From a virus (taxonomy: Duplodnaviria > Caudoviricetes): 60,812 nt of DNA. The notes under the pieces are model-generated. The model made no database searches. It was not told the DNA's origin and saw only the letters and a list, made by a program, of their open reading frames with translations. The position numbers were made by a program, and so were the translations under genes. Positions 1,192-17,842 of this stretch are shown one piece after another. Numbering within the stretch: position 1 is the first letter of the stretch; each line of letters starts with the position of its first letter. The stretch covers positions 1 to 60,812 of the IMG/VR virus record IMGVR_UViG_3300008267_000069, one strand, 5' to 3'.

Positions 1192-1211
1192 GTGCGGTTC
1201 CTTTCTGTGCG

Positions 1212-1394
1212 CTAGGCGCTCTTGGTGCTGTGATGCAGGTTGGCGTAGATGATGAGGCTAGTGAAGATGTTTGCCTGCTTCTCGGTCAGCTGCGCCCATC
1301 GAGCCTTGTCGGTGGTCCCAACCTCGGCCTGCATGGTCTGGTTGGTGATCGCCAGCGACTTGAGCAGTTGTTTCAGCGTGTCAGTCATGCTCAC
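1212..1394 (-). CDS. Hypothetical protein (60 aa)
   Basis: GGAG RBS, co-oriented, fills the gap. Confidence 0.55.
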   Translation of the reverse strand: MSMTDTLKQLLKSLAITNQTMQAEVGTTDKARWAQLTEKQANIFTSLIIYANLHHSTKSA

Positions 1395-1444
1395 TCCAAG
1401 CAGCCATCGGGCTGCATCTACCTTCTAGCGCGGCGGTCAGACTT

Positions 1445-4429: not shown

Positions 4430-4860
4430 TGCATACCTGCCCAGGTGCGAGTGACACGATCCTCAAGACCCGCACCAAGGCGCTCAAGGATGGGAACCTC
4501 GGACTGAAGGTTGCGGCACAGCGCCACAACCGACGGGAGGTCAGTAGCCAGCCCGCTCTCCACGATGGAGGCGAGAACCTGCGAGAGCTTCTTGTGCGCT
4601 GCCAGAGTCTCCACCAGCGATCCGCTGGATGTGGGGGCGGGAGCCTCGACCACAGCAGCAGGAGCGGCAGCCTCCACCACCTGCTCCGGAGCAGGCACAG
4701 GGGCAGCGGGAGGTGGCACCTCTACGGTGCCAGCAGGCTCGCGCAGATCCACCTCGGACACCGCGACATCATGTGGCAGTCCAGCCCATGCAGTCATGAT
4801 GTACCGCTTGACCTCTTCGGGAGACATCTCCCCTTCGATGGTGATCTTCAGCCGCGCCAT
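4426..4860 (-). CDS. Hypothetical protein with Ala/Pro-rich linker (start re-called at MARLKIT)
   Basis: AGGAGG RBS plus start-associated hairpin before the ATG at 4860; the longer ORF overlaps two other genes. Confidence 0.7.
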   Translation of the reverse strand: MARLKITIEGEMSPEEVKRYIMTAWAGLPHDVAVSEVDLREPAGTVEVPPPAAPVPAPEQVVEAAAPAAVVEAPAPTSSGSLVETLAAHKKLSQVLASIVESGLATDLPSVVALCRNLQSEVPILERLGAGLEDRVTRTWAGMQ

Positions 4861-5039
4861 GCCGTACCCTCCTGCGCCTTGGAGGCGCACTCTTTGTGGT
4901 CTTGCGTGAACTTGTCGATCCGCTTGGTCATCTCGGACAGGCTGACCGGCAGGGTGACACCCGCCTCCACCTTGCAACTGGGACAGGCCCACCAGATGCG
5001 GCTGTTGCCGGGGGTCCAGATGATGATGTCTCGGCTCAA
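4848..5039 (-). CDS. Small Zn-finger-like protein (CPSC...HKEC)
   Basis: Metal-binding pattern; ATGA overlap with the upstream gene. Confidence 0.6.
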   Translation of the reverse strand: MSRDIIIWTPGNSRIWWACPSCKVEAGVTLPVSLSEMTKRIDKFTQDHKECASKAQEGTAWRG

Positions 5040-5317
5040 GGGATCTCTCCCAGATGCCGACGCAGCCGCTCCACCTCAGCCAGCAGCGCGTCGATGTCCT
5101 GAGGTGCGTGGGCGATGAACTCGGCGGTGCTGGCAAGCGCCTCATGCGGATAGGCAAACACCTTTTCGATGGCGTCGAGGTAGACAACCGCCACCGTATC
5201 GTGGGTGCCTGCGACAAGAATGTGCTTTCTGTTGAGGGCGTTGCCGCCAGTCACCCATGGGCCAGGCTCTGACAAATCACGCCGCTTCTTGATCTCTGCC
5301 AGTTGTTCGTTGGTCAT
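5036..5317 (-). CDS. Ead/Ea22-like phage protein
   Basis: PGPW...AEFIAHAPQDIDALLAEVERLR signature common in phages. Confidence 0.65.
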   Translation of the reverse strand: MTNEQLAEIKKRRDLSEPGPWVTGGNALNRKHILVAGTHDTVAVVYLDAIEKVFAYPHEALASTAEFIAHAPQDIDALLAEVERLRRHLGEIP

Positions 5318-5955
5318 GCCGACACCCCCATCACAAGCTGGCGCAGACCAGACACGATGCGACGGTACAGCGCATCGCGGACCTTGCGCGCATCCCCGTC
5401 CTCCCAGCCCATCCCGTCGCCCTCTTGGGGGTAGGTGTGTGAAGTCGGCTCAAGAATTCCAAGCAGAGTGACGGTTGCTTCCTTCCCGTCATGCCTCCAC
5501 CAGCCGGAAGCGACGTTGCCGCTGCTACCGTGAAAGCTCTGCACCCGCACGCTGCCCAAGGCTTTGACAGTCGCCTTCAACTCTTCCGGCTTGAGGCTGG
5601 GCACATCCTTGAGCGTGACCAAGTAGCCACCCTCGCCGAATCCACGGTTAACGCAGACGCGCTCGTAGGCGCTCTCACAGGCAGCCAGCAGCACCTGTGC
5701 GACCGGCAGCTTGAGACGATCCTCCAGGTGCGCCACCAACCGAGGCACGTCATCAACCTTGGCGCGCAGTCGCTCAAGGAACAGCTGCCGCCTGTATTCG
5801 TCGGCTGCCATGCCCTTCGGTCGCGCCCACTTGATGGTGGACTGCGAATGCCACTCAACTTCAACCGGGGGAACAAACGAGATCGCACTCGCATCCACGC
5901 CAAGCATGATCGCAAGCGCGTTGATGCCCTTCTCAGCCTTCCTTGTCTGACGCAT
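5314..5955 (-). CDS. Hypothetical protein
   Basis: GGAGG RBS; ATGA overlap downstream. Confidence 0.7.
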   Translation of the reverse strand: MRQTRKAEKGINALAIMLGVDASAISFVPPVEVEWHSQSTIKWARPKGMAADEYRRQLFLERLRAKVDDVPRLVAHLEDRLKLPVAQVLLAACESAYERVCVNRGFGEGGYLVTLKDVPSLKPEELKATVKALGSVRVQSFHGSSGNVASGWWRHDGKEATVTLLGILEPTSHTYPQEGDGMGWEDGDARKVRDALYRRIVSGLRQLVMGVSA

Positions 5956-6023
5956 GCCAACCTCCGTGCCTTCCCTCTAGCGCAGTCGCTCCGGTTTTCG
6001 GTGAGCCGCTGAAGTTTCTTCGA

Positions 6024-6872
6024 TCAGCCGCCAAGGCTCGCCTGCGCCCACTCCCACAGGTCGGAGCGATCCACCTCGTCGGGATCTGCCCCGTCGAGCA
6101 GCTTCACGCAGCCAGCCCTGCACCCTTCCAGCCGCAGCCTCATGGAGAGGGCATAGCCCTTTTCCCAAGCATCAGCGTCCAGCACCACGACCAGCGGGCG
6201 CTTGCTCTTGGAGAGCAGCAGGATCTGCTTCTCGCTGGGCATCCCCAGCACCGCCACCGCATGCGGCCAAAGGAACAGGGAGTCGAAGGCACCCTCCACG
6301 ATGTAGAGGTGTTCGTCCGTGTCCTCCCACAGCGCGTTCTGGTTGTGCAGCACGTCCCCGCGCCAGGTTCCGGATGGGTAGCGATACGCGGCCTTCTTCG
6401 GCACTCCCTTGTCATAGGCTCGGGTGGTGTAGCCGTACCAGCTGCCATCCGACCGGAGGTTAGGAATCACGATCCTGCCGGCGTACTTTCCGTAGATGCA
6501 CGCCCCGACCTGGGCCTCATGCCAGACTCGCTCGGGGATGCCGCGCCCGTGCATGTAGTCACGGGCAGGGGCCAGAGTCTCGGAGTCATCCCCGGCCAGC
6601 AGGCAGAAGCCATCCGGCGGGCGGGTGAGGTTGTCCAGCTCGCGCTGTTGCTCGTCGGGGGTGGCGGGGATTGGCTTGAACTCCTCGGCATCCCCGTCCA
6701 GCTTGCCGCGCACCGGACAGCGAAAGCAGTGGTAATAGCTGGTTTCGGGGTTGTAGCTGAAAGAGTCGTCGCGCCCTTGGCAGAAGGGGCAATGGGCGCG
6801 GAGCCAGCCGGCCCTGGGCTTTCCCGTCGAGATGGCCGCACGGACGATGGCCTCCTTCTCAGTGCGATTCAC
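6024..6872 (-). CDS. DnaG-type DNA primase (Zn finger plus TOPRIM)
   Basis: CPFC...HCFRC, RIVIP, IVEGAFD, LDADA, DPDE. Confidence 0.9.
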   Translation of the reverse strand: MNRTEKEAIVRAAISTGKPRAGWLRAHCPFCQGRDDSFSYNPETSYYHCFRCPVRGKLDGDAEEFKPIPATPDEQQRELDNLTRPPDGFCLLAGDDSETLAPARDYMHGRGIPERVWHEAQVGACIYGKYAGRIVIPNLRSDGSWYGYTTRAYDKGVPKKAAYRYPSGTWRGDVLHNQNALWEDTDEHLYIVEGAFDSLFLWPHAVAVLGMPSEKQILLLSKSKRPLVVVLDADAWEKGYALSMRLRLEGCRAGCVKLLDGADPDEVDRSDLWEWAQASLGG

Positions 6873-7323
6873 GGCTCAACCTCCCAGCGTAGCTTGGTCT
6901 GGAGTGGGTGGCGGTCTACTCGCGGACGACTCTTGCATGACCATGCCACCCCCCCGCCTCACCAATGCACTTCCAGCCCGCCCCCCGCAAAGAAGCGCCG
7001 CCCTCTTCCGGCAGCGTGTAGGTGACGAGCTTGCGGTAGCCCAAGGCAAAGGCTGCACGCCGCGCTGCCCCATAGAGCGCAGAGCAGGCGTTAGGACATC
7101 CATCCGTGGCCACGCGGTTGACTTCCAACGTCCACCCGGTGTCGAGGTGACGCGCTACAGGGCGACCGACGATAGCAACGCCTCGGATCGTGTCAGTCTC
7201 GTCGCACACAGCCAGAGAGAACTTGTGACCTGGCACCGGCTTGTGGTGCCTGTGATGCTGGGCCACGAAGGCATTGGCATCCACAAGCTCGCAAGGGATG
7301 ACCGTCAACTTGCTGCGGGTCAC
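6869..7323 (-). pseudogene. XF1762-family (Mom-like, GNAT-fold) putative DNA-modification gene, frameshifted at a G7 tract
   Basis: ANAFVAQHHRHH...GRPVAR...LEVNRVATDG...NACSALY...VTYT...GASLRGAGW; one extra G at 6949-6955 restores WSCKSRPRVDRHPLQTKLRWE, ending in a GTGA overlap with the primase start. Confidence 0.7.
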
Positions 7324-7574
7324 TTATCCCCCCTCTCGATCCGATCAGCCAGATCACGCAGGGCAGCCACAGCAGCCTCGCGGGCCTCTTCCTTGGTGGC
7401 CCATGAAACAGGCGTTAGATCCTGCGGCAGCGCCCACGGCCTTGCATCCTGCGGCAAAATGCAGAAGGGTACGCTGTACGGATCAAACGGATCAAACAGG
7501 GAAACCTCATAGCCCTGCCCTTCGATGCCGCCGACCCTCCAAAACAGTTTGACGGCTGAACGCTTCATCACCAC
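7320..7574 (-). CDS. Hypothetical protein
   Basis: Overlaps both neighbours in the operon. Confidence 0.65.
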   Translation of the reverse strand: MVMKRSAVKLFWRVGGIEGQGYEVSLFDPFDPYSVPFCILPQDARPWALPQDLTPVSWATKEEAREAAVAALRDLADRIERGDK

Positions 7575-8923
7575 GGCTCCTCTCGGACAACGGGAAACAT
7601 CCGGGCCATCGCACGGGCTGCCGGCAGGGAGCCGGTCCCCACTCGGTCGGTTCCGTCACGGTTCAGGATTACGAACCAATCGACCAAGTCCTTGGCGTCC
7701 AACTCCATCCGCATGGCGATGACCAGATCAGCGATGCGGACCTTGTGCTGAGAGTCGGCGGCATCGTCCATGTCCAGAGGCTTGCCAGCCGATCCGGTCC
7801 CGCGCTTGCCCTGCGATGCGCTGATCACATGGTACTTGTGGTTGAGGGCATGGTCGCGGAAGGCATTGCCCACCGTCTTCTGAGCCTTGTAGTCGCCCTC
7901 GTCGCTCTTGCCGCCCTTGCCCGCACCGACGAGGTCAACGTAGTCCACGACCAGCAGATTGAGCGGAGCCTTCCACTCTTCCTGTAGCTGCTCCACCCAG
8001 CGGGTGATCTCTCCCACCGGAGTCTCGGGGGCAAACCGCATCACGCTGATCTTGCCCAGCCGGGGCAGCAGCTTGTCCATGCGACGGCGCACCAGCGGAT
8101 CGCCTCGCTGCACCTCGTCCAACAGGCAGCCGGTCAGGTTGGCGATGATGCGCTCCAGCTGCTTCTTCGCGTCCAGTTCAAGGGTGGCGATGGCGACGTT
8201 GCGCCCGTTCCACAAAGCCTCGGCCGCAACGCTCGACAGCACCATGCTCTTGCCTGACTTCTCGCGCCCAAGGAACAGAGTGTAGCCCTGAGGCAGTCCG
8301 CCTCCGATCACGCCATCCAATTCAAGGCAGCCGGTGGGGAACCTGGTCGCGCTGTTGGCTGCCACGATCTCGTCCAGCAGGGAGCCGTGAAGCGTCTCGC
8401 CCATGGTCACGCGGCTCTCACCGATCCGCTCGGTGGCAGCGATCTCCTGACCTAGCTTGGCGAAGTCGCCGCCCTTAGCCATGGTGTCCATGGCCTTCTT
8501 GACCACCTCTCGCTTGGCGCGCTTCTTGAGGAGGTTGGCCACCTCGGCCACCACCTCGGCAGGATTGGGCAGGCCAGCGTCCTCGGCCTCGTCCAGATAC
8601 TCGACGGCTTCCTGCACCTGCTCGATGGTCGTCTTGCCCTCCTCGCGCCAGGACCGGAGGCGCTGCACCACGGAGAGCGTCGAGGTCGGACCCTCACCCA
8701 ACTCCCCAGCGATGGCCTGCGCCGCCTTGAGTAGCTGGACACCGACCTTGCTGGTGAGCGCCTTGGGGTCGAGCCGCGCCCCGACTCGGGAGTAGACATC
8801 GCGGTTGGAGCAGCAGAAGTAGATGAGCGCCCGCTCAAACTCAGGCAGGAGGCCGTAAGGCTCCACGCCAGAGGTGACTGCGCCGCTGCCCTGCCCGCCG
8901 GGAATCGCCTTCAAGGTCGCCAT
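7568..8923 (-). CDS. DnaB-like replicative helicase
   Basis: FPTG, Walker A GREKSGKS, TLEL, LLVVDY, SASQ, RIADLVI. Confidence 0.92.
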   Translation of the reverse strand: MATLKAIPGGQGSGAVTSGVEPYGLLPEFERALIYFCCSNRDVYSRVGARLDPKALTSKVGVQLLKAAQAIAGELGEGPTSTLSVVQRLRSWREEGKTTIEQVQEAVEYLDEAEDAGLPNPAEVVAEVANLLKKRAKREVVKKAMDTMAKGGDFAKLGQEIAATERIGESRVTMGETLHGSLLDEIVAANSATRFPTGCLELDGVIGGGLPQGYTLFLGREKSGKSMVLSSVAAEALWNGRNVAIATLELDAKKQLERIIANLTGCLLDEVQRGDPLVRRRMDKLLPRLGKISVMRFAPETPVGEITRWVEQLQEEWKAPLNLLVVDYVDLVGAGKGGKSDEGDYKAQKTVGNAFRDHALNHKYHVISASQGKRGTGSAGKPLDMDDAADSQHKVRIADLVIAMRMELDAKDLVDWFVILNRDGTDRVGTGSLPAARAMARMFPVVREEPW

Positions 8924-8926
8924 TGT

Positions 8927-10537
8927 TTACCCCCACATCCACTCGCCGCTACGGCTACGGATGCGGCGTTCAACGTCCTGCTGTGCTGCCTCTCGCTGCC
9001 GTGCCTGCTGCGCCAGCAGCACCTTCCGCTCGGAGTCGGGCAGGACTGCGGACACTACCTCAGAGGTCGGGCGGCCCCAACCCAGCTTCTTGCGGAGGGT
9101 GTCCAGCCGCTCCATCAGCGTCCGCACCGCCGGCAGCGGCACCGGCTGCGCCGTGTTCAGCGTGCCGACGGCTTCATGGCACCAGCCCGCATGCTCATGG
9201 ATCCGCACGGCGCTCCACACCCATCTAGGGCTAGGCGCTCCCTTTTTGGTCATCGAGGCCCACTGGTAGAAAGAAAACCGCGCCCAGGCTGTCGGGCTGA
9301 TGTTCTCAGCCTCAAGAGCCTGCGCCGCCTCCAGCAGCGCCGCCCGCTCCTTGGCCGACTGCGCCTTGGCGGGACGCCAGAAGTCCGTTCGCAACACCTT
9401 CTCATGCACGGCCCGATAGGCCGCCTTGAGCAGCGCCAGCCGCTCGTTCTCGCTGTGGGACGCCTCCACCTTCGGAGGGGCAGGCACCCGCAGCACTTGG
9501 ATCTCGTTGGCGAGCTGCGAGGCGGCGCGCATGTCCTCGCTGGTGTACCGCTGCTGCGGCCCCTTGTAGCCACCGCCCAGCGTGATGCACTTGGGGCCAC
9601 CCTCGCCACCCAGCACCGAGAAGAGATCCACCTCCACGCCGTCGGCCCATGCGGAGGCCGGCGCGGGCTGCGCCTCGGGCGCGCTGCGCCTGACCGGAAG
9701 GGCCGGGGCGGGTGCGCTGTCGCTTGGCTGGGTGAAGTTGGGCATGGGTGCCTCCCCTTCGCTGGGTGTGAGGGTGCCGAGAAGGATGGGGAGAGGGTAC
9801 CTCAAGGGATTCTTCCTCTCCTTTCCAGCCCTCTCTGTAGATAAAGAACGCACGCGGAGTGAAACTCCGCATTTCTGATGAAGAGCCGTAGGCTCTTCAG
9901 AAGAAATAAGATCTTGGTACTTATAGGCAGGTATGTTTGATTTTCCGGGGAGACGTTTGATTGCCTGCCGAGGGGCGCTGTCCTTGGCTCCCTTGGGACG
10001 GCCAGCGCCGGGGCGCACGCCGCCCTGACCGGCGGCTTCCTTCACCAGCCGTGCAGTCTCACGCGGCACCAGCGCGTTCTGGGTCTGGCCGTCGGGGGTG
10101 GCCTTGAGGATGCCCAGCACCTTCCGGACGTAGACCTTGTGCATGTGCGGCCCCAGATCGGGATCGCACCGGCAGGGAACCCTGCGGTAGGTGAAGCCCT
10201 TGTCGTCCACCAGCTTGAACTCGCGGAGGCGGGCAAGGCTCTTGCGGACCTGCTCCAGCCCGAGGCCGGTGGCCTTGACCAGCCCAGGAACGGACGGGTG
10301 CGTCTCGCACTCCCCGTTGCGGAGGGTGAGCAGGGTGGCCCACAGCCGAAAGGTGGAGCGGCCCAGCTTCTTCTGGAGCAGGGTGGCCGGGAGGATGGCG
10401 TCGGCCTTCGCTGAGGAAAGGCGCACCTCGCGCTGCTCACGCTCCACGACCTTGGCGATGCCCTCAGTCCGTCGAGGTATCGGGCGGCGCGGGATGATCC
10501 AGCGACCTTGATCATCAGTCAGTTGTAGGGAAGGCAC
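8927..10537 (-). CDS. Putative replication initiator (N-terminal wHTH, AT-hook-like GGVRPGAGRPKG, internal AT-rich ori-like segment)
   Basis: Directly upstream of the helicase; HPSVPGLVKATGL...VRKSLARLREFKLV wHTH; GAGGAG RBS before GTG. Confidence 0.6.
   Translation of the reverse strand: MPSLQLTDDQGRWIIPRRPIPRRTEGIAKVVEREQREVRLSSAKADAILPATLLQKKLGRSTFRLWATLLTLRNGECETHPSVPGLVKATGLGLEQVRKSLARLREFKLVDDKGFTYRRVPCRCDPDLGPHMHKVYVRKVLGILKATPDGQTQNALVPRETARLVKEAAGQGGVRPGAGRPKGAKDSAPRQAIKRLPGKSNIPAYKYQDLISSEEPTALHQKCGVSLRVRSLSTERAGKERKNPLRYPLPILLGTLTPSEGEAPMPNFTQPSDSAPAPALPVRRSAPEAQPAPASAWADGVEVDLFSVLGGEGGPKCITLGGGYKGPQQRYTSEDMRAASQLANEIQVLRVPAPPKVEASHSENERLALLKAAYRAVHEKVLRTDFWRPAKAQSAKERAALLEAAQALEAENISPTAWARFSFYQWASMTKKGAPSPRWVWSAVRIHEHAGWCHEAVGTLNTAQPVPLPAVRTLMERLDTLRKKLGWGRPTSEVVSAVLPDSERKVLLAQQARQREAAQQDVERRIRSRSGEWMWG
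9853..9945. repeat. Structured 93-bp element, copy 1 (inverted copy at 25570-25662); candidate replication origin
   Basis: Near-identical reverse complement of 25570-25662; hairpins GCGGAGT-GAA-ACTCCGC and TGAAGAGCC-GTA-GGCTCTTCA; locally AT-rich. Confidence 0.9.
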
Positions 10538-10548
10538 GCTCTCCTCGA

Positions 10549-10686
10549 TTCACCGGCAGGGCGAACGTGCCCGGAGGCACGCTGGTTGCGCTAGGGGGGT
10601 GATCGGGGAGGGGCGTCACAGGGGAAGCAAGCTAACCCTTTTTCCCTACCCGATAAGCCACCAAGCACGTTCGCCCTGCCGGCGAA
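10549..10686 (-). promoter_or_regulatory. Long hairpin in the 5' leader of the initiator gene
   Basis: Perfect 18-bp inverted repeat CCGGCAGGGCGAACGTGC (10553-10570 / 10665-10682) with nested internal stems, ending just before the RBS. Confidence 0.7.
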
Positions 10687-10827
10687 CCGTGCCTGCTTTC
10701 TTCGTGACCACCATCAATCCCCGCACCCCTGCAAGGCTTGACAGCGTTAGGCTCACTCTAGTGTAGGCACCGACGGAACGCAACCCCGACTTGCGGCGTC
10801 AAGGTTGCGCCCCATCCAGCCTGCGGA

Positions 10828-10998
10828 TCAGTAGCCTCGCAGCAGTCCCTCGATCCGATAGGCCAGCCACTTGATGCTGGCAAATACCAGCCGCACCGCG
10901 CCTCGGATCAGCCAGGCTCCGATCACGCCGAGGCAGACACCGACGGCGATCCGCAGCGAGACTCCCATCCAGAACATCTGCCCATCGATCCCTTCCAT
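10828..10998 (-). CDS. Small membrane protein (56 aa)
   Basis: Hand translation MEGIDGQMFWMGVSLRIAVGVCLGVIGAWLIRG...; GGAGG RBS. Confidence 0.6.
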   Translation of the reverse strand: MEGIDGQMFWMGVSLRIAVGVCLGVIGAWLIRGAVRLVFASIKWLAYRIEGLLRGY

Positions 10999-10999
10999 C

Positions 11000-11188
11000 T
11001 CAGACCTCCTCGCCGCTGGCGATGGCCAGCATGGGGTGACGGGACGGCAGGACGGCAGCAGCGCGCCGCCAAGTCCGTGCCCGCTCCAGAGCCTGCCTCC
11101 ACTCGTAGTCGGCGGTCCCGTAGACCTCTACCCGCCCTGCCACCTTCTTGAAGTCCACCAGAGACACCCTGCCGTTGAACTTGGCCAT
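11000..11188 (-). CDS. Hypothetical protein (62 aa; start re-called at MAKFNG)
   Basis: GGAGG RBS and start-associated hairpin. Confidence 0.65.
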   Translation of the reverse strand: MAKFNGRVSLVDFKKVAGRVEVYGTADYEWRQALERARTWRRAAAVLPSRHPMLAIASGEEV

Positions 11189-11255
11189 AGACGGCCCTCC
11201 CGCGCCCTCAGGCGCATGATCGGTTGTTGATCGAGTACAGACAGGGGGCGGGTCG

Positions 11256-11738
11256 TCAAACGGCGACAGCGGCCCACCAAGTCGGGGCAGGACGCCCCTT
11301 GGCCCACTTGGCGATGCTGGCCTTGGCGCCACGGTAGTAGGCGCGGTACGCCTCGACCGGATCGTCGCACTTGAACTCGTCGGGCATGGCCAGAGCAAAC
11401 GCGGTCAGCCCCGCATTCGGCAACGAGTCAGCAAGCGCGATGACCTGATCGGCGCACCACTGCATGACCGCGCGGCTCTTGTGAATCTTGCCGAATCGAT
11501 GGGTGTACTCGTCAGCCAGCGCCATGCCATGCACCAGCAGCCATGCGTAGTTGGTCAGGCTGGTGCGCGCCCACACCGCGCAGGGGTGGTTGTGGTGGGT
11601 CCGCTTGTAGGGGGCGACACCCTGCGGAAAGGCGCTGCACAACAGCTGCGCCGTTTCCAGCACCATCTTGACGAGGTGCTTGTCGCACTGCATCCGAGCA
11701 GCGGTGACGGGATCACGGTCCAGAACAAAGATGTTCAT
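11256..11738 (-). CDS. Pyrimidine-dimer DNA glycosylase / endonuclease V (T4 denV-like family)
   Basis: MNIFVLD...CDKHLVKMVLETAQLL...YKRTHHNHPC..W...EYTHRFGKIH...VEAYRAYY. Confidence 0.85.
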   Translation of the reverse strand: MNIFVLDRDPVTAARMQCDKHLVKMVLETAQLLCSAFPQGVAPYKRTHHNHPCAVWARTSLTNYAWLLVHGMALADEYTHRFGKIHKSRAVMQWCADQVIALADSLPNAGLTAFALAMPDEFKCDDPVEAYRAYYRGAKASIAKWAKGRPAPTWWAAVAV

Positions 11739-11808
11739 GAGGTTGTCTCCAGCGCCATGAGGCGCATCGGCTAGTTGCAGGTGCTGGTAGCGGCTACCTG
11801 TAAGGTTG

Positions 11809-11837
11809 CTTCTAGGCTATCGGCGTGAACGTGTCAA
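11809..11837 (-). promoter_or_regulatory. Sigma70-like promoter
   Basis: TTGACA-17 nt-TAGAAG upstream of the glycosylase gene. Confidence 0.45.
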
Positions 11838-11841
11838 CAAC

Positions 11842-13497
11842 TTAGATCAGACGACGCTGCGCCTCCTCCTCGGGGTGATAGCCGGGGCAGGCAGGGGGCA
11901 GGTTGTCGGAGGGTGCGCCGCAGACGGTGCAGCTGTAGCCCACCACCTCATGCGCCCTCATCACCTTGCCGCGCCGGGGGTTGCGGAGCTTGTCCACGCC
12001 AGCGAGATCCTGGAGCGCCTGCCGTCGCAGCTCGGCCCGATAGGCAGCCTGCGCTGCGCTGCCCAGCGTGAAGCCATGCCCATCCTTGCGGGGGTCGGGC
12101 TGCTCCACGCCGATCTGGCCCACCTCCAGCACCTCGACCTTGAAGCCCTCCCGCTCGTACACGTCCTTTCGCGCCCGCCCGTGCTTGGCCAAGTAGCGGT
12201 TCCCGTCATCCAACACGTCCCACGCCTCAAAGGTCTTTTTGTCCTTGGTGACACGGGTGGCACGCCCCAGCCGCTGGAGGGTCAGGATCACGCTCTGCCC
12301 GCCGGCAGCGTTGACCACGGAGGCGAGGCTGGGAATGTCCACGCCTTGGGCGAAGACGTTGCTGCACACGATCACGTCCAACTTGCCCTCGACCAAGCCC
12401 TTGATGGCCTGTCGGCGCTCCTCGGTGTCGTCCTCACCCCAGACCAACTCAGGCCGCAGCCCTGCCTTCTTGGCCATCGCCAGCAGCGTCCTGCCTTGAT
12501 TGACCTGGGAGACGAAGACCAGCGCCGGCTTGGCTGCCTGCCGTGCCATCGCCACCACGGCAGCGTTCCGGACCTTGGAGCGGACCACGCACTCGCCATA
12601 GACACCAGGCCACGTTGGGGCGTTGCTGCCCTGCTCCACCCGGACCATCTTGATCGTGGCATCAGCGAGGAAGCCTCGCGCCCTGAGTTCCGCGCTGCTG
12701 GTCTTGTGAATGATCCCTCCGAACTGGCCCAGCACGAACAAACTCTTTCGGTCGCTCCGGTCCAGCGGGGTGGCCGAGATGCCGATCCGGTAGTAGGCGT
12801 TGATGGCCTTGCTGCTGACGAACGAGAAGGTGCCAGCAGCTACGCTGTGGGCCTCGTCGCAGATCATGCCTTGCACGCTGGCCATGTAGGCATAGGCTGC
12901 TCGGTCCTTGGCCTTGCTCATGCGCCGGCTCAAGGTCTGGAATGTGGCCACGGTGATCTGCTGCGGGTTCCAGACGCCGTCTCCGATGATCCCCGGCTCC
13001 ACGCCCAGCCGCTCCCTGATGTGCTTGGCGAACTGCTCCAGCAGGTCGGACTGAGGGACCAGGATCAGCCAGCGGGCATCCGGCACGGAGGCGAGGATCC
13101 CGGCAGCCGCCACGCTCTTGCCTGCTCCTGTGGGCATCTGAATGATTCCGCGAGTCCGAGTGAGCGCAGCCTCCACCGCCTGCACCTGGTAGTCGCGGAG
13201 GTAGGAGAGGTCAGCCTCCACCCTCGGCGGCGGCTTCTGCCTCACGTCCACCAACTCCACCTCGACGGGATCAAGCCGTCCGCTCAGGTGGGTGCGGGTT
13301 GCCCCTGCCTTCTTGACCTTGCCGGCAAAGCCGCTTGGGAACGAATTGTCGATCCGGTTGACCAACTCCACCACGGGGCTGCCGTTGGTGAAGCGGGCCT
13401 GAGGGTCAGCGAAGGTGAGGTACTCGGAGAGCCACTCCATCTCCTCTGGGGTGTACTGGACGACCTTGGCGGTGGCGCAATCGACCTCGATACGCAT
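11842..13497 (-). CDS. SF2 DExH helicase (UvsW-like)
   Basis: LRDYQ, PTGAGKS, CDEAH, SATP, GVDIP, QRLGRATR. Confidence 0.92.
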   Translation of the reverse strand: MRIEVDCATAKVVQYTPEEMEWLSEYLTFADPQARFTNGSPVVELVNRIDNSFPSGFAGKVKKAGATRTHLSGRLDPVEVELVDVRQKPPPRVEADLSYLRDYQVQAVEAALTRTRGIIQMPTGAGKSVAAAGILASVPDARWLILVPQSDLLEQFAKHIRERLGVEPGIIGDGVWNPQQITVATFQTLSRRMSKAKDRAAYAYMASVQGMICDEAHSVAAGTFSFVSSKAINAYYRIGISATPLDRSDRKSLFVLGQFGGIIHKTSSAELRARGFLADATIKMVRVEQGSNAPTWPGVYGECVVRSKVRNAAVVAMARQAAKPALVFVSQVNQGRTLLAMAKKAGLRPELVWGEDDTEERRQAIKGLVEGKLDVIVCSNVFAQGVDIPSLASVVNAAGGQSVILTLQRLGRATRVTKDKKTFEAWDVLDDGNRYLAKHGRARKDVYEREGFKVEVLEVGQIGVEQPDPRKDGHGFTLGSAAQAAYRAELRRQALQDLAGVDKLRNPRRGKVMRAHEVVGYSCTVCGAPSDNLPPACPGYHPEEEAQRRLI

Positions 13498-14066
13498 TAG
13501 AGCATCTCCTTGATCCGGGGATCGGCAGCCATGCGGCGCTTGGCCTGCTTGGTGGCCTCGTAGAGGGCGGTGACAGGAATGCCGGTAGCCTCGGCCACCT
13601 CGGCGCTCTTGGCCTCTCCGGTCAGCACAGCGCGCACAGCCTCACCGTGACGGCCGGCAGCCAGATGCTCGGCCACCAGCAGGGCCAGCACCTGGTCGCG
13701 CTCGGCCTTGTCGAGGGCGTCATCGGCTGACAGCTGATCAGCCGCCACCACGGTCAGAGTCTCATCCGACACGGAGGCAGCACGCATCCGGCCGATCACC
13801 TGAGGAGTTGCGCTGCGCTGGGGGATGTTGGCAGCCACGCTCAGACGCCAGCAGAGGCTCTTCACCGCACGGGAGGCGCAGGGGTAGAGGTAGCCGCCAA
13901 GGTCACCCGCCTCGGGCTGGTAGCGGGGCAGCGCCTCCAGCATGGCGACCCACGCCTCGCTGACGAGGTCGGCGGTATCCAGCCACGGGTGCGTGCGGTG
14001 ATAGCTGCGGGCCACCTGAGTGGCCACGCGGGACAGAACGGCAGATTGCTCAAGGGAGAGGTTCAT
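13497..14066 (-). CDS. Phage sigma70/ECF-like sigma factor (start re-called at MNLSLEQ)
   Basis: Region 2-like DLVSEAWVAMLEALPRY, region 4 HTH SAEVAEATGIP; GGAG RBS plus hairpin. Confidence 0.75.
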   Translation of the reverse strand: MNLSLEQSAVLSRVATQVARSYHRTHPWLDTADLVSEAWVAMLEALPRYQPEAGDLGGYLYPCASRAVKSLCWRLSVAANIPQRSATPQVIGRMRAASVSDETLTVVAADQLSADDALDKAERDQVLALLVAEHLAAGRHGEAVRAVLTGEAKSAEVAEATGIPVTALYEATKQAKRRMAADPRIKEML

Positions 14067-14113
14067 CTTCGACTCCAGCGCCATAAGGCGCATCAAGGGA
14101 ACGGGGCGGGAGA

Positions 14114-14311
14114 CTACTGCTTCTTGTGCTTCTTGCTACGGATCATCTGCCGGCTTTCAGCGAACGCCCACTCAGCGGCGGTCAGCCGGTGCAAGTTGTT
14201 CGCAGCATGAAAGGAGATGTAGCAACTGCGGCAGCAGCCCTCGTTGTAGGGCTGGCGCATCTCTGCACCGCAGGACACACAACCGATCAGTGGAGGGGGC
14301 TTGGCAGGCAT
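14114..14311 (-). CDS. Small Cys-rich protein (CVSC...CRSC)
   Basis: GGAG RBS and start-associated hairpin before the ATG at 14311. Confidence 0.55.
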   Translation of the reverse strand: MPAKPPPLIGCVSCGAEMRQPYNEGCCRSCYISFHAANNLHRLTAAEWAFAESRQMIRSKKHKKQ

Positions 14312-14347
14312 CTCGGACTCCATGCGCCCTGTGGCGCAGCACGGGTT

Positions 14348-14608
14348 TTACAGGACAGCGCGGTGGGCCTCACACAGCAGCGCAGCGGAGGCACTGGTCG
14401 CCAGCGTCCAGCAGTAGACGCCGGCAGAGTTGTAGCCGTGAGCCATCCACCAGCTAGCACCCGGCAGCAGCGGGGAGAGCTTGCGGAAAAGCTCCATCAG
14501 TTCAGCGTGGTCACGGGGGAAAAGACACTGACCAGACTCGCTCGCGGGCATCGGAGCGGAATCACCACCATCAACGATCTTGAGGACAGTGCGCTTGGTG
14601 CGGGCCAT
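14348..14608 (-). CDS. Hypothetical protein
   Basis: AGGAG RBS, hairpin, promoter upstream. Confidence 0.65.
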   Translation of the reverse strand: MARTKRTVLKIVDGGDSAPMPASESGQCLFPRDHAELMELFRKLSPLLPGASWWMAHGYNSAGVYCWTLATSASAALLCEAHRAVL

Positions 14609-14650
14609 CTCAGACTCCTAAGCGCCATGAGGCGCGTCGGTGATGGACGA

Positions 14651-14679
14651 ACACTACTGATGTGGCAGAGAGCCGTCAA
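14651..14679 (-). promoter_or_regulatory. Sigma70-like promoter
   Basis: TTGACG-17 nt-TAGTGT with an A-rich upstream element. Confidence 0.7.
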
Positions 14680-14779
14680 CCTTTTTGTTGTCTATCTTTT
14701 GACCCTTCGCGTCATGCTCAATTTTGTCGGCTGGACCCACGGGCATTTCTCAAAAACAGGGTAAGCCTCCAGCGTCAGC

Positions 14780-15015
14780 GGGGGAAAATTCTGGGGAATT
14801 TTTCTGGGATTTTTCCCAGAAATTGCTGGGAAATTCTCTGGAAAAAGTCTGGGAATTTCTCTGGAAATTCTCCAAGATTTTGTCAGGAAAAGTTGAGGAA
14901 AATTCTGACAGAATTTTTGGGAAATTCTCCCGAAAAAGTCTGGGAATTTCTCTGGAAATTCTCTGGGAATTTTCCCAAAAAAGTCTGGGAAAAAGTCTGG
15001 AGAATTTTTCTGGAG
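14780..15015. repeat. AT-rich degenerate tandem repeat (unit of about 11-12 bp, CTGGGAATTTT/GGAAAAAGT-like)
   Basis: About 20 imperfect units; a ~45-bp segment occurs at about 14828-14872 and again at 14919-14963. Confidence 0.85.
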
Positions 15016-15712
15016 AGAACCTGGCCCGGCCGGCCTCGAAAAAAATGGTACGGACGAGATCGCTATAGCGTGAAAAATAGCCAATTTCACTTCTGCCCGG
15101 CGACCAGGTCGAAACTGGCCGAAAAGTGGGCCGACCTCCAGTAGCGTCCATTGAATATCTGTTGGTTTTTCAACATTCTATTGAATGGCGGCTGTTGAAT
15201 AGCCGTTCCGCTAGCCGGGGGCTGTTAGGTCGGCGGGGCCGGGGAGCGGTCGGGGGGCTGGCGGGCAGAGTAGGGCGGGAGCGGCCTTTCCGGGGCTTTA
15301 GAGCGCCTAACGGAGGGGGTCTAGTGTAGGATGCAGGGGGAGGGAGAGATCGGGGCTTATAGAGGCTTCACGGCCGTCTCTCGTTTCCCGTTGTCCGGTC
15401 GCCGGCCGTCCGGAGGGTGACCGGGTCGCGGTCCTCGCTTGAGGCCGGCTCGCTGCCCGCGCTCGATAGCAGCGACGGCCAGCCGCCTTCCGACGGCGGG
15501 CGCTCCTCTCCTGGTGCGGCCGGTGAGAGGTTAGGCGGGCAAGGCACGGCCAGCCCGCCGCCCGTGAGGCGCGGCAGGGTCTAGACGTGCGACGACGCTG
15601 GCCCGACACCGGAGGAGAGCACCAGGTAAAACACGCCAAGGCGCACGGCCAGCGGCACCGGGGCGGCGCGGCTGGCGGTGAGTCCTAGCAGGCAGAAAAG
15701 GAAGCGCCCCCT

Positions 15713-15859
15713 CTAGCGCCCTAGCCCGGCGTCGGCCTTAGCCGACGCCGCAAGCGCGGCCTTCAGTTCCTCAAGGGTCCAAGGCCGATCATGCACGATT
15801 CCGTGACGGGGACAGACGACCGGCGCAGGCTCGGTCGGGGAGTTAGGACGTTTCGACAT
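15713..15859 (-). CDS. Small hypothetical protein (48 aa, MSKRPNSP...)
   Basis: GAGG RBS plus start-associated hairpin. Confidence 0.5.
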   Translation of the reverse strand: MSKRPNSPTEPAPVVCPRHGIVHDRPWTLEELKAALAASAKADAGLGR

Positions 15860-15961
15860 AGTGAACCTCTAGCGCCATCTGGCGCACACTCGCCGGGGTA
15901 ATCCGGACGCGGCTGCGCCCTTCCGGACAGAATCCGAAAAGGCGCAGCGACGGCGGACTAG

Positions 15962-16276
15962 CTAGCGCCGCACGTCCGCTACCGCTTGACCGTCGATATT
16001 GACCATGCGCCATCGCAAGTCGCCACCCATCTCGACGACCCTGGCAAGCAACGCCGCCGACGCACGCGCACAGTAGACGCCCGACCAGTCCAGTTGCACG
16101 CAGGCTTCCTCCGCACAGCGTGCGGCATCGCTCTCTGCGATTTCCTGGGTGCGGCCAACGCCCCAAATTAAGCCGCCGTCACTGTAGGCGATCCAGCCAG
16201 CGGGCAGCATCTCAGGGGGGAGCGTCTCAGAGTCCAGCGACTCAAGAGCCTTTTGAATGCTCGTATAAAACGGCAT
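15962..16276 (-). CDS. Hypothetical early protein (start re-called at MPFYTS)
   Basis: GAGG RBS plus hairpin; resembles the C-terminal part of 16777-17211. Confidence 0.65.
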   Translation of the reverse strand: MPFYTSIQKALESLDSETLPPEMLPAGWIAYSDGGLIWGVGRTQEIAESDAARCAEEACVQLDWSGVYCARASAALLARVVEMGGDLRWRMVNIDGQAVADVRR

Positions 16277-16315
16277 GGGAACCTCTAGCGCCATCCGGCG
16301 CACCAAAAGGGAAAA

Positions 16316-16540
16316 CTAGCGGCTCTTGCACTCGCAAGCGGAACGGCCAGCGGGGAGACGGCAGAACGTCCGCCACTGCTGCGCCTCCCACCGCTCGTAG
16401 TCGTCGTCTCCCCATCCCTCGCTCACGTCGTCGGAGGGGAGCGGGAAGGGCAACACGTCGCGTCCGGGGCAGGCACGGGGGGCGGCGGCGGCAGGGAGGG
16501 AGAGGGCGAGAGCGGCGAGGGCGAGGACGATGCGGGACAT
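16316..16540 (-). CDS. Small secreted Cys-containing protein
   Basis: Signal peptide MSRIVLALAALALSLPAAAA; GGAG RBS plus hairpin. Confidence 0.65.
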   Translation of the reverse strand: MSRIVLALAALALSLPAAAAPRACPGRDVLPFPLPSDDVSEGWGDDDYERWEAQQWRTFCRLPAGRSACECKSR

Positions 16541-16583
16541 GGGAACTCCGGAGCGCCATGAGGCGCGGTGAGGGTGTGAGTGC

Positions 16584-16612
16584 TTTGTAGACCAGTTGCG
16601 ATGGCGCGTCAA
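16584..16612 (-). promoter_or_regulatory. Sigma70-like promoter with the -35 inside an inverted repeat
   Basis: TTGACG-17 nt-TACAAA; GCGCGTCAA-N10-TTGACGCGC. Confidence 0.55.
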
Positions 16613-16642
16613 CCTTTTCTTTTTGACGCGCTGCGCCGACTG

Positions 16643-16720
16643 CTACAGATAGAGGTGGAGGCCGATGGCAGCAGCGAAGGTGAGGAGGATGCAGATGCCA
16701 GCGAGGTTGTCATTCGTCAT
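16643..16720 (-). CDS. 25-aa hydrophobic peptide MTNDNLAGICILLTFAAAIGLHLYL
   Basis: GGAG RBS plus start-associated hairpin; one TM-length segment. Confidence 0.55.
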   Translation of the reverse strand: MTNDNLAGICILLTFAAAIGLHLYL

Positions 16721-16776
16721 GGGGAGTCTCCAGGTGCGCCTTAGGGCGCGATAGGGTGGCAAGGGGAGAGGGGAGG

Positions 16777-17211
16777 CTAGCAGAGGTCGTAGACGGGGCC
16801 GTCTGACGTGCGATCGGACAGAGTCACGTCGATCCGGTCGACGCCAGCCTCGACTAGCGCCAGCACTCGCTCCGTCACGCCGCGCACGTCGATAGAGTCG
16901 AGGTCGAACGTCTCGCCCAGCGTCTCCAGCAGGCGGTCAGGGCTGGAGTCGCAGCCGACGACTTGACGACCCGAAAAGGCCACATATCCGGCCAGCAGGG
17001 GAGCGGGAGCGAGGCGCGACTTGTCGGAGGAGAGCGCTTCCGGATAGTCGGAGGCGACGACGTTGCCCGACACCAGCGAGGCCGCCATCATGCAGGCCGG
17101 AATCTTCCAGTGGCGGCCAGCGATCAGCAGCGCGCCAGTAAACGTCGAGGCCAGCACTCGCACCGACTCGCCGTGCCGCGTCACGCAGAAGAGGTGGGTT
17201 CCGTTCGCCAT
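16777..17211 (-). CDS. Hypothetical early protein
   Basis: GGAG RBS plus hairpin, promoter upstream. Confidence 0.7.
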   Translation of the reverse strand: MANGTHLFCVTRHGESVRVLASTFTGALLIAGRHWKIPACMMAASLVSGNVVASDYPEALSSDKSRLAPAPLLAGYVAFSGRQVVGCDSSPDRLLETLGETFDLDSIDVRGVTERVLALVEAGVDRIDVTLSDRTSDGPVYDLC

Positions 17212-17259
17212 GGTCAGTCTCCAGGTGCGCCATCGGGCGCTGTGTTTTGTCTATCGGTT

Positions 17260-17288
17260 GTTGTAGTGCATCCCTTAAGGCGTGTCAA
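17260..17288 (-). promoter_or_regulatory. Sigma70-like promoter with the -35 inside an inverted repeat
   Basis: TTGACA-17 nt-TACAAC; GGCGTGTCAA-N9-TTGACGCGCC. Confidence 0.55.
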
Positions 17289-17314
17289 CCTTTCAGTTTG
17301 ACGCGCCGCGCTAG

Positions 17315-17440
17315 CTACCAGCCCAGCAACGAGAGAATGGACCGGCCCGTCGAGAGCCAGTAACAGCCAGCCACGATGGCAGGGGAGAGGACGGCGAGGA
17401 CGATGGCGGTCTTGAGGGCTTCCTGCTTCAGCGTGTCCAT
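17315..17440 (-). CDS. Small membrane protein (41 aa, MDTLKQEALK...)
   Basis: GGAG RBS within the leader GCAACGGAGACTCCCC that it shares with the gene starting at 17732; hydrophobic stretch. Confidence 0.6.
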   Translation of the reverse strand: MDTLKQEALKTAIVLAVLSPAIVAGCYWLSTGRSILSLLGW

Positions 17441-17483
17441 GGGGAGTCTCCGTTGCGGTGAGAGGGTGAGGGGAGGGAGGCGC

Positions 17484-17732
17484 CTAGCGGCGGCGCAGGT
17501 TGCCGTTGGGCGTGAGGGGGTGCTGCACATTCGTCGGGCGGCCAGCCTCGTAAGCCATGTAGGCGGCGCGCCATGCGTTGTGTGCGGCCTCTTTTTCAGC
17601 CGACAGTCCGCTAGCCTTCGTAGCGGCGATGCCGATGCTATCGAAACTCGCCTCCTCTTCCGCCGCCTTAGCCTGTAGCGCGTCCCACAGGATGCGAATC
17701 GCGCGGCGCTGAGCTGCTTTGCTGGGCGTCAT
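17484..17732 (-). CDS. Hypothetical protein, first gene of the left arm
   Basis: GGAG RBS; sigma54-like promoters directly upstream. Confidence 0.65.
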   Translation of the reverse strand: MTPSKAAQRRAIRILWDALQAKAAEEEASFDSIGIAATKASGLSAEKEAAHNAWRAAYMAYEAGRPTNVQHPLTPNGNLRRR

Positions 17733-17769
17733 GGGGAGTCTCCGTTGCGAGGGGGTTGTTTCGTCTCTC

Positions 17770-17842
17770 TGCTAGCAGCGTGCCAACCGGCTCAGCCCGT
17801 CGCTCGCACGCTGCCGGATAGCCTTAGCAGTCGGCGTGCCAA
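17770..17842 (-). promoter_or_regulatory. Two tandem sigma54-type (-24/-12) promoters
   Basis: TTGGCACGCTGCTAGCA (17786-17770) and TTGGCACGCCGACTGCT (17842-17826), both with GG-N10-GC spacing. Confidence 0.6.

Follow-up and report, generated by a model that had tools for sequence, protein, structure and literature searches.

The closest described counterparts of the element reported here are the start-associated sequences (SAS) of Cluster K mycobacteriophages. The SAS is a short motif present in 11-19 copies per genome, which is confined to the non-structural genome half, just upstream of starts that are mostly ATG, and which is conserved in relatives before genes of different families, as stated in its description (PMC3203893). 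It is a 13-nt asymmetric sequence, GGGATAGGAGCCC, which contains the Shine-Dalgarno (SD) sequence and is found 3-7 bp upstream of starts (PMC3203893, PMC12699233). A second motif, ESAS, consists of 17-bp imperfect inverted repeats with a spacer of 4-13 bp; in the account given of it, its departures do not support pairing in RNA, and the authors favoured binding to DNA (PMC3203893). These motifs were described in 2011 (PMC3203893), and in a survey from 2025 the function of the SAS is called unverified (PMC12699233). The stoperators of Cluster A mycobacteriophages are also mentioned in the 2011 report (PMC3203893). Here, we analysed a virus record from IMG/VR, IMGVR_UViG_3300008267_000069, which has 60,812 bp and an estimated completeness of 69% and which will be hereafter referred to as the window. 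In this DNA, a hairpin, GCGCC-N4-GGCGC, is repeated immediately upstream of the SD sequences of early genes.

Signals at early genes have also been described in T4 and its relatives. In T4-type phages, the elements named PeSLs combine a strong sigma-70-like early promoter with a terminator stem-loop and are located before small, non-essential early open reading frames (ORFs) (Arbiol et al. 2010, PMC2839356). In T4, the RegA protein is reported to repress many early mRNAs at their initiation regions, RegB to cut the GGAG Shine-Dalgarno of early and not of late mRNAs, and the operator of gp43 to be composed of a hairpin and the ribosome-binding site, as a single autoregulatory site (PMC3014915).

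The window has two arms. Leftward genes, on the minus strand, run from about 17.8 kb to base 1, and rightward genes start at about 19 kb. The pattern GCGCC-N4-GGCGC has ten matches in the window, all of them between 11202 and 17240 (Table 1). In 100 shuffles the mean number of matches was 0.60 and the largest was 3, so that none of the shuffles reached 10. An eleventh copy at 4874-4888, with a 5-nt loop, is not significant alone, as at least one such match is seen in 44 of 100 shuffles. It is validated by a relative, G003, in which the hairpin is kept, with another loop, before the orthologous gene of 144 amino acid residues (aa). All the tagged genes are on the minus strand. In each of the 11 copies, 0-4 nt separate the hairpin from the SD, and 11-15 nt separate its end from the ATG. 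The SD that follows is of the GGAG type (GGAG, GAGG or AGGA), and the ORFs behind the 11 copies comprise 25-189 aa with a coding-type G+C content at third codon positions of 0.67-0.86. A matching start context is found at 1476 of 121,476 positions in the window (1.2%), and all ten tetraloop copies have one (P ~7e-17). An initial annotation of this DNA, made from its letters only, had placed the ten tetraloop copies and the copy at 4874 at these coordinates and had given the same two distances; the scan and its enrichment at start codons bear it out on each of these points.

Whether 10 nt or about 77 nt separate the hairpin from the upstream stop codon, its register is the same. Even with the long spacers of hairpins 15885 (about 77 nt) and 11215 (40 nt), it is still found at the SD. 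Its position thus follows the SD rather than the end of the preceding gene. The copy at 4874..4888 is contained in the 3' end of the upstream 63-aa ORF. The hairpin is confined to the leftward early, non-structural genes. The rightward virion arm (19-60.8 kb) contains no copy, although many genes there have spacers and good SDs; the initial annotation had likewise noticed none before a virion gene. That annotation had also named a sigma factor, a glycosylase and tiny ORFs among the genes with the hairpin, and these were recovered as a sigma-70 region-2 protein, a Pyr_excise-like protein, and ORFs of 25 and 48 aa. The hairpin marks genuine starts of tiny early ORFs (25-65 aa) that are missed by gene callers.

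Table 1 Positions of the hairpin copies, their variants, and other features of the window. The distance of the ATG is counted from the end of the hairpin.
Feature	Positions	Strand	Context
GCGCC-CGAT-GGCGC	17227..17240	-	GGAG after 4 nt; ATG 17211 at 15 nt; 144-aa ORF 16777-17211
GCGCC-CTAA-GGCGC	16736..16749	-	GGAG after 4 nt; ATG 16720 at 15 nt; 25-aa hydrophobic ORF 16643-16720
GCGCC-TCAT-GGCGC	16553..16566	-	GGAG after 3 nt; ATG 16540 at 12 nt; 74-aa secreted-like ORF; loop in relative GATC
GCGCC-GGAT-GGCGC	16288..16301	-	GAGG after 2 nt; ATG 16276 at 11 nt; 104-aa ORF
GCGCC-AGAT-GGCGC	15872..15885	-	GAGG after 2 nt; ATG 15859 at 12 nt; 48-aa ORF
GCGCC-TCAT-GGCGC	14622..14635	-	ATG 14608 at 13 nt; 86-aa ORF
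GCGCC-ACAG-GGCGC	14324..14337	-	GGAG after 2 nt; ATG 14311 at 12 nt; 65-aa Cys-rich ORF
GCGCC-TTAT-GGCGC	14078..14091	-	GGAG after 1 nt; ATG 14066 at 11 nt; 189-aa sigma-70 region-2 protein; loop in relative GGAT
GCGCC-TCAT-GGCGC	11752..11765	-	GGAG after 1 nt; ATG 11738 at 13 nt; 160-aa Pyr_excise-like protein; loop in relative TGTT
GCGCC-TGAG-GGCGC	11202..11215	-	GGAGG after 1 nt; ATG 11188 at 13 nt; 62-aa ORF 11000-11188; loop CGAG in G002, AAGT in G003
GCGCC-TCCAA-GGCGC (5-nt loop)	4874..4888	-	AGGAGG after 0 nt; ATG 4860 at 13 nt; 144-aa ORF; loop in relative (G003) TCTGT
GCAGCC-CGAT-GGCTGC, variant	1400..1415	-	GGAG after 2 nt; ATG 1388 at 11 nt; 58-aa ORF
TCGCC-AGC-GGCGA (3-nt loop), possible variant	11010..11022	-	abuts GGAGG; ATG 10998 at 11 nt; 56-aa ORF
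GCGC-CTA-GCGC, weak (4 bp, 3-nt loop)	1205..1215	-	AGGA after 6 nt; ATG 1191; includes upstream stop codon
TTGACA-N17-TACAA, promoter-like	17261..17288	-	-10-like hexamer 19 nt from hairpin 17240
TTGACG-N17-TACAA, promoter-like	16585..16612	-	17 nt before hairpin 16566
TTGACG-N17-TAGTG, promoter-like	14652..14679	-	15 nt before hairpin 14635
TTGACA-N17-TAGAA, promoter-like	11810..11837	-	43 nt before hairpin 11765
TATAAGTA element	9950-9850 (9845-9950)	-	inside nominal 536-aa ORF, ahead of replication genes
TATAAGTA element	25570-25665 (25565-25670)	+	ahead of virion genes
Family A DNA polymerase, N-terminal UDG-like domain	1445-4129	-	Pfam UDG, E = 2.6e-6
Primase	6024-6872		left arm
DnaB-like helicase	7568-8923		left arm
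HTH_36 protein, nominal 536 aa	8927-10537	-	
Pyr_excise-like protein, 160 aa	11256-11738	-	E = 3.5e-7; its PHROG is named 'DNA binding protein'
SF2 helicase	11842-13497		left arm
189-aa protein with Sigma70_r2 (sigma-70 region 2)	13497-14066	-	E = 1.2e-9
tRNA-Ala (TGC)	52745-52820	+	inside virion arm

The hairpin precedes nearly every independently started early gene. The initial annotation had counted at least 11 genes with it in the left arm. Not all left-arm genes are marked, as overlapping or coupled genes and the two most upstream genes do not carry it. The untagged genes of the left arm (helicase, 56-aa, 93-aa, 63-aa, 99-aa and PolA) are mostly overlapping and coupled, and several of them start with GTG or TTG. 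The 63-aa (4848-5039) and 99-aa (4130-4429) proteins among them are conserved in the clade, as is the tagged 62-aa protein. The two most upstream leftward genes, of 82 aa and 41 aa, start at 17732 and 17440, respectively. These two genes share an identical 21-nt initiation region, cgcaacGGAGactccccATG (17438-17458 and 17731-17751), of which the part GGAGACTCCCCATG also stands after the hairpin that ends at 16749.

Variants of the hairpin were also found. The variant at 1400..1415 has compensatory changes in its stem and keeps the CC/GG core. Its counterpart in G003, GCAGCC-AAGT-GGTTGC, has one G.U pair and is located before a 143-aa orthologue. Both variants keep the core, the loop type and the register, with two pairs changed on both sides. 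The membership of the site at 11010..11022 is uncertain, because it lies inside the upstream coding region. A 'weaker variant near 1208' had been noticed in the initial annotation; a short hairpin does exist there, but it is merely GCGC-CTA-GCGC, and the better variants at 1400-1415 and 11010-11022 had been missed.

Compared with the SAS of Cluster K, the window hairpin is likewise repeated, start-associated, restricted to non-structural genes and found before different gene families. Unlike the SAS, it is separate from the SD. The SAS consensus has no match in the window at up to 2 mismatches, and both the host and the phage lineage are unrelated to Cluster K. The analogy with these sequences, drawn in the initial annotation, is thus apt, while the window hairpin is not a member of the group. 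It is the simplest start-associated motif so far, a 14-nt hairpin with RNA-type constraints that could be moved into reporters.

Relatives of the window were sought through its helicase. A protein search gave 84 homologues at E <= 1e-20, about 40 of which are 59-82% identical and come mostly from Logan or ENA. A single-protein scan of IMG/VR gave no relative; a profile scan of IMG/VR gave 21 loci, two of them close (G002 and G003), and a scan of metagenomes gave 19 loci, all at no more than 49% identity. G002 (18.6 kb) and G003 (17.3 kb) have helicases with 70% identity and are syntenic with the window. G002 contains eight perfect copies of the hairpin (none of a control pattern) and one with a G.U closing pair, and all nine are located before an SD and an ATG. 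G003 has one perfect copy with a 4-nt loop, one copy with a 5-nt loop and two variants; its start-associated copies number 2. At five orthologous sites both arms are kept, although the loops differ (Table 1) and the flanks barely align. The site in G002 that is orthologous to 11202..11215 closes with a G.U pair; the 62-aa ORF behind it is conserved in both G002 and G003. The 74-aa ORF that starts at 16540, whose N-terminus is signal-peptide-like, has an orthologue in G002 that is also tagged. Furthermore, ORFs of G002 that have no counterpart in the window, of 94, 87, 218, 107 and 66 aa, carry the hairpin too.

The hairpin does not extend to more distant loci. In the 38 loci with helicases at no more than 49% identity, no repeated SD-adjacent hairpin was found, and perfect hairpins next to an SD occur in at most 2 copies of any stem (L013, L033). 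These loci do share the sigma, HTH, DnaB, primase and PolA genes. One other phage with the hairpin, G001, surfaced in a scan of IMG/VR for the motif followed by an SD and an ATG; among the matches listed, the others are mostly single and chance-like. In bacterial genomes, the matches listed are scattered singles from many phyla, and neither an enriched host nor a prophage relative is among them. G001 is a complete phage of 56.5 kb with terminal repeats and an integrase, and it is probably temperate. It is weakly related to the window, in virion genes only, with 23-34% identity. It has five start-associated copies at 32.1-35.9 kb among small non-structural ORFs, with the loops TGCC, TCCG, CACG, TCCG and TACCG and one G.U closing pair; two further perfect copies lie outside such a start context. 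G001 (L178) also has another repeated leader hairpin, tcacaccGGCGCG-N4-CGCGCCac, before two other small ORFs (~34391-34420 and 34717-34745), and a longer repeat (gcgtttcactttt(c)acc) is located ahead of two of its GCGCC hairpins. A phage may have several kinds of start-associated hairpin.

The departures from the perfect stem are of the type expected of RNA. An alignment of 27 copies, the members of which were preselected to have at least 4 of 5 pairs, shows pairing in 134 of 135 stem cells. There are three one-sided changes, all of them C>U and giving G.U on the sense strand, and two pairs with compensatory double changes. The covariation score of this alignment was reached by none of 500 shuffles, and slid controls pair in 27-45% of cells. 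When pairing was not required, the one-mismatch start-associated copies of four genomes included two that are intergenic, both with a C>U change in the 3' arm that gives G.U on the sense strand; a third one-mismatch match sits within the helicase gene. In this respect too the hairpin is unlike the ESAS, as its arms have 5 bp (6 in the variant), its loop has 4-5 nt, and its stems are almost completely paired.

The loop is strand-specific in the window. All ten tetraloops have A as their third base, compared with an A content of 17.8% (P = 3e-8). Over the window clade, A is at loop position 3 in 16 of 20 copies, while the mirror image, T at position 2, is seen in 2 of 20 (sign test P = 0.0013). 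Outside the window, A at position 3 is found in 6 of 9 copies in G002, in none of the 4 in G001, and not in the one canonical copy of G003. This asymmetry argues against a symmetric dimer on double-stranded DNA, but as the loop-A rule is limited to this genome, it is weak evidence for a protein that reads the loop. Of the step made in the initial annotation from the loop to an RNA hairpin read by a protein, the RNA hairpin is favoured by the register, the loop and the pairing, whereas the A proved invariant in this genome only.

A double-stranded operator, in which the 14-bp palindrome would bind a dimeric phage regulator and so let it block transcription through each early gene or modulate it, is quite unlikely. 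The model for it is provided by the Cluster A stoperators, which are asymmetric 13-14-bp sites on double-stranded DNA for the immunity repressor of temperate phages, oriented in one transcription direction, through which one protein exerts genome-wide control. Like the stoperators, the window hairpins are present in many copies in short intergenic spaces and in one transcription direction. The palindrome is perfect and near-invariant in paralogous and orthologous copies, many of which are in one transcription unit; the hairpin-carrying G001 encodes an integrase, and the window encodes HTH_36-containing and sigma-like proteins, any of which would suit an operator. However, the window site is a palindrome with variation of the RNA type, unlike the asymmetric stoperators, and neither integrase nor resolvase was found in the 60,812-bp record, which covers an estimated 69% of the genome. 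Moreover, the hairpin keeps a fixed distance to the SD and ATG, while its distance to the promoter-like sites ranges from 15 to 43 nt. A symmetric dimer would not be expected on a site with strong asymmetry in its central 4 bp, and the variants alter both half-sites yet still pair, while one-sided changes are G.U. A sense-strand RNA hairpin is therefore favoured over a symmetric double-stranded site, because of the SD-fixed register, the asymmetric loop, the G.U and compensatory departures, and the place downstream of promoter-like sites.

The promoter-like sites were recognized as follows. A strict scan for sigma-70 sites over 10500-19200 gave none. The pattern TTGACR-N17-TASWR, which was spotted by eye and is thus post hoc, has exactly four matches in the whole window, all on the minus strand, with 0.1 expected. 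The -10-like sequence CTAnAAc resembles the alphaproteobacterial sigma-70 consensus. The seven other hairpin copies are intercistronic and have no promoter-like site. As the sites lie upstream at a variable 15-43 nt, the hairpins are located in leaders or between cistrons, and not in promoters. In two of the promoter-like sites, the -35-like TTGAC forms the 3' arm of an inverted repeat of 7-9 bp (GCGCGTCAA ... TTGACGCGC), the loop of which is A-rich (16600-16640 and 17275-17312, minus strand); this repeat may be an operator or an upstream terminator.

It is highly improbable that the hairpin itself is a promoter element, whether recognized by the phage sigma-like protein or extruded from DNA as a hairpin of the N4 type, so that each early gene would have its own transcription start just upstream of the SD. 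Promoters of the N4 type are small DNA hairpins that have a loop of 3 nt and serve a giant virion RNA polymerase. The window loops have 4-5 nt, and no polymerase family was detected on the large ORFs of the virion arm in this 69% complete record; the large ORF of 1644 aa has no Pfam family, so that no virion RNA polymerase is recognized there. A copy before almost every gene and the presence of a phage sigma-like gene would fit a promoter. A start downstream of the hairpin, however, would leave almost no leader before the SD, four copies already have promoter-like sites upstream, and none is found before late or virion genes, the expected targets of a phage sigma. Instead, the TATAAGTA element described below heads the replication block and the virion block.

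The hairpins share with the PeSLs that they belong to small cassettes before many small early ORFs, and that relatives differ by insertions, deletions and replacements bounded by cassettes. Unlike the PeSLs, they have a promoter-like site before only 4 of the 11 copies and are locked to the SD, not to a promoter. A terminator-like flag was raised for one of ten copies, 17227-17240, on the antisense (plus) strand only. An intrinsic terminator was rejected, since on the sense strand the hairpins run into the SD with no T-run or U-tract.

Exchange of genes is evident in the left arm. The hairpin-led genes are its variable part, and most of the small ones are unique to one genome. The order is helicase, Pyr_excise-like gene and 62-aa gene in the window, and helicase, 62-aa gene and Pyr_excise-like gene in G002; the Pyr_excise-like gene is absent from G003. 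In the contig of one relative, 83 nt stand in place of 14095-14710, joining 14094 to 14711 and leaving out two hairpin-led ORFs and a promoter-like site. The breakpoint and the sigma-gene hairpin at 14078-14091 are 3 nt apart; this is the one informative joint among short contigs. Judged from these sequences, early gene cassettes appear to be exchanged at the hairpin, so the hairpins point to the exchange sites of such cassettes. It is improbable, however, that the hairpin is mainly a recombination boundary, a hairpin-SD unit that persists because it mediates the exchange of ORF cassettes and has little regulatory role. The whole hairpin-led ORFs by which relatives differ, their changed order and the replacement breakpoint agree with such a boundary, and PeSL recombination is reported to shuffle genes of T4-type phages (PMC2839356). 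For exchange, though, identity alone would suffice, which leaves the SD register, the pairing of the variants and the loop asymmetry unexplained; moreover, 14-25 nt is short for homologous exchange, and no specific recombinase was seen in the record.

The all-G/C stems have predicted free energies of -7.7 to -9.0 kcal/mol, with a 5-bp stem around the core CGCC-N4/5-GGCG. When folded in context, the hairpin is predicted with P >= 0.86 at 7 of the 11 sites. No Rfam family was found at the hairpins at gathering score, nor at E <= 1 in 10800-17800, where weak matches occur only in the array at 14788-15011. Three other ideas about the hairpin were rejected. An 'insulator' that frees the SD is unsupported by constrained folding; mimicry of the anti-SD (CCUCC, formed by the 5' arm and the loop) was dismissed by inspection of the loops, as only some copies have it; and the upstream AUG in 'AUGGCGC' is, by inspection, out of frame with the gene and without an SD of its own.

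Our preferred reading, which is tentative and has somewhat less than an even chance of being right, is that the hairpin is a common recognition site on early mRNAs for a trans-acting factor. The palindrome would be transcribed in the leader or in the intercistronic spacer of leftward early genes, and the RNA would fold into a 5-bp G+C hairpin with its 3' foot directly on the SD. Hairpin, SD and ATG would then form a standard translation-initiation cassette that tags independently initiated early genes. A factor encoded by the phage or the host would read the hairpin and set the translation or the fate of the mRNAs of the whole early class together, by shut-off, by activation, or by cleavage next to GGAG, with a logic like that of RegA, RegB and the gp43 operator in T4. 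The conserved cassette of about 20-25 nt would, as a side effect, provide microhomology for the gain, loss and reordering of early ORFs. If a factor does read the hairpin, translation of a whole gene class would be under a switch of a new type, and the hairpin could serve synthetic control as a compact part.

The likeness to the T4 systems lies in the class-wide post-transcriptional control at the initiation region that is proposed for the hairpin. The sites of RegA and RegB have no common hairpin, and the gp43 operator is single, unlike the 11 copies in the window. Homologues of gp43, RegA and RegB were not detected, the small early proteins being without Pfam or PHROG family. Stem-loops of about 5-7 bp that are read in a sequence-specific manner by a phage protein include the coat-protein operators of MS2 and PP7 and boxB, which occur once or twice per genome. 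The operators of the RNA phages include the start codon, and binding at the initiation region represses translation. BoxB serves antitermination; it has a 5-bp stem and a GNRA-like pentaloop, at sites after early promoters. In the window there are 11-13 copies, all of them 5' of the SD, unlike either group. A lambda-type nut/boxB site was rejected, as 10 of 11 loops have 4 nt and the 11 copies are locked to the SD. The window hairpin thus belongs to none of the groups formed by Cluster K SAS/ESAS, T4 PeSLs and T4 translational operators, and in open-access papers no description of GCGCC-N4-GGCGC or of another repeated phage hairpin abutting the SD was found.

Several points weigh against a recognition site. 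No candidate reader was found among the small early proteins, which have no Pfam or PHROG family; for the clade-specific 62-aa protein, the best score of an Atlas search was 0.83, below the lead threshold. The loop preference varies by genome, from NNAT in the window to NNCG in G001. The count of paired cells is biased by the way in which the members of the alignment were chosen, the compensatory changes come from one variant lineage (W1414, G3_4765) and possibly represent a single event, and for a reader of DNA, a G.U at the outermost pair would likewise be the least disruptive change of a half-site. Of the 11 sites, two are predicted to form the hairpin poorly, 14337 (P = 0.01) and 11215 (P = 0.06), and two more moderately (0.49 and 0.67); forbidding it in silico leaves the predicted accessibility of the SD and AUG unchanged. 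G001 shares the stem but no detectable early protein with the window, BLAST matches being to virion proteins only; as G001 was found via the motif itself, its identical stem is a matter of ascertainment and not independent support. Finally, a reader is not needed to account for the near-invariant stem, because each single change weakens an all-G/C stem and paralogous copies may share descent. It is for the absence of a found reader, and because stability alone could keep such a stem invariant, that we hold the recognition site at no more than tentative strength. The element that the initial annotation had called a regulon-wide translational switch, processing site or stabilising element is real, start-associated and confined to early genes, but its mode of action we can only infer, with no predicted effect on SD accessibility and no reader found.

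The main rival is an intrinsic RNA element that has no dedicated reader, and we consider it unlikely. In this view, a 5-bp hairpin of maximal stability next to the 5' side of the SD would stabilise the cistron, as a 5' hairpin formed after processing or close to the transcript start, or it would dock or stack beside the helix formed by the SD and the anti-SD and so standardise initiation, and the identical stems would result from common descent of a copied cassette and selection against weakening. The fixed SD register, the stability of the all-G/C stems, and changes that are only G.U or compensatory, together with the reader not found, agree with it. At three of the four promoter-like sites, moreover, the hairpin would be about 8-12 nt from the predicted transcription start, if the distance from -10 to start is assumed. 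The predicted accessibility of the SD and AUG speaks against it, as it is the same with and without the hairpin (mean unpaired 0.50 and 0.48). Virion-arm genes with spacers and good SDs lack the hairpin, which argues against a general translational need, and distant relatives in the helicase (no more than 46% identity) have no analogous hairpin. The strand-specific loop, with A at position 3 in 10 of 10, is not explained by pure stability. If there is no factor, the window is an example of how initiation is standardised in phages rich in G+C by nothing more than a hairpin beside the SD.

A bolder form of the recognition site, which is doubtful, would make the hairpin a universal address label. 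One small RNA-binding or RNA-cutting factor would read CGCC-N4-GGCG beside GGAG and switch the whole early proteome on or off at once, each ORF would be a portable self-expressing cassette, and the Cluster K SAS and the second hairpin of G001 would be similar labels. If this were true, labelled early ORFs would be swapped in an integron-like manner via a translation signal, and a widespread layer of translational control in phages would have been overlooked.

A separate conserved element of about 100 nt, the TATAAGTA element, occurs once per arm, in the sense of transcription. It begins with GAAAATCAA-N11-CCTATAAGTACC, behind which stand two hairpins, the first of 16-17 bp and the second GCGGnGTTTCACnCCGC. 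G002 and G003 have the element too, and its positions outside the window are L180 16766-16875 and L181 13360-13470; in the relatives its stems are partly compensatory, with double changes in 4 of 18 predicted pairs. The element may be a middle or late promoter, perhaps for the phage sigma, with a structured leader, or it may be a small RNA. Beyond its leftward copy at 9850-9950, there is only one canonical hairpin copy, at 4874. If the element is a middle or late promoter, the ten tetraloop hairpins are all in the early unit upstream of it, which fits a class-specific tag. Residues 196-228 of the 536-aa HTH_36 ORF, which hold the leftward element, read like non-protein sequence. This ORF may be two genes joined by an open spacer; counting against this, homologues in G002 and G003 align over its whole length. 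Just upstream of the rightward element, at 25498-25590, there are three 21-nt direct repeats (GAAAATCAAGTGTCGC...), which may be activator sites.

The G+C content of the window is 60-67%. No close cultured relative was found, a megablast of the region giving no match. Against cultured phages, tblastn gave no more than 30% identity for the helicase, and the portal shares 27-28% identity with those of Ralstonia and Komagataeibacter phages. The right arm is composed of the portal and very divergent virion genes, the latter without Pfam family. The labels of DNA runs that contain parts of the window are mostly freshwater metagenomes, and no host was drawn from them. The family A DNA polymerase also has a 3'-5' exonuclease domain. 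Five helicase homologues (P0020, P0027, P0029, P0037 and P0041), of 870-903 aa, carry intein or homing-endonuclease Pfam domains (PF05204, PF14528, PF07591, PF14890), so relatives have intein-bearing versions of the helicase. In the divergent region between the arms, at 18160-18700, a long purine-rich run (GGAGAGG-type) is followed by a pyrimidine-rich stretch of low complexity. In an A+T-rich non-coding gap of the early arm, at 14789-15009, there is an array of about 20 degenerate 11-bp units (TTCTGGGAATTT) with higher periods of 23, 45 and 91. Its Rfam matches, sub-threshold, are spurious. The array is iteron-like and may be a replication origin or a protein-binding array.

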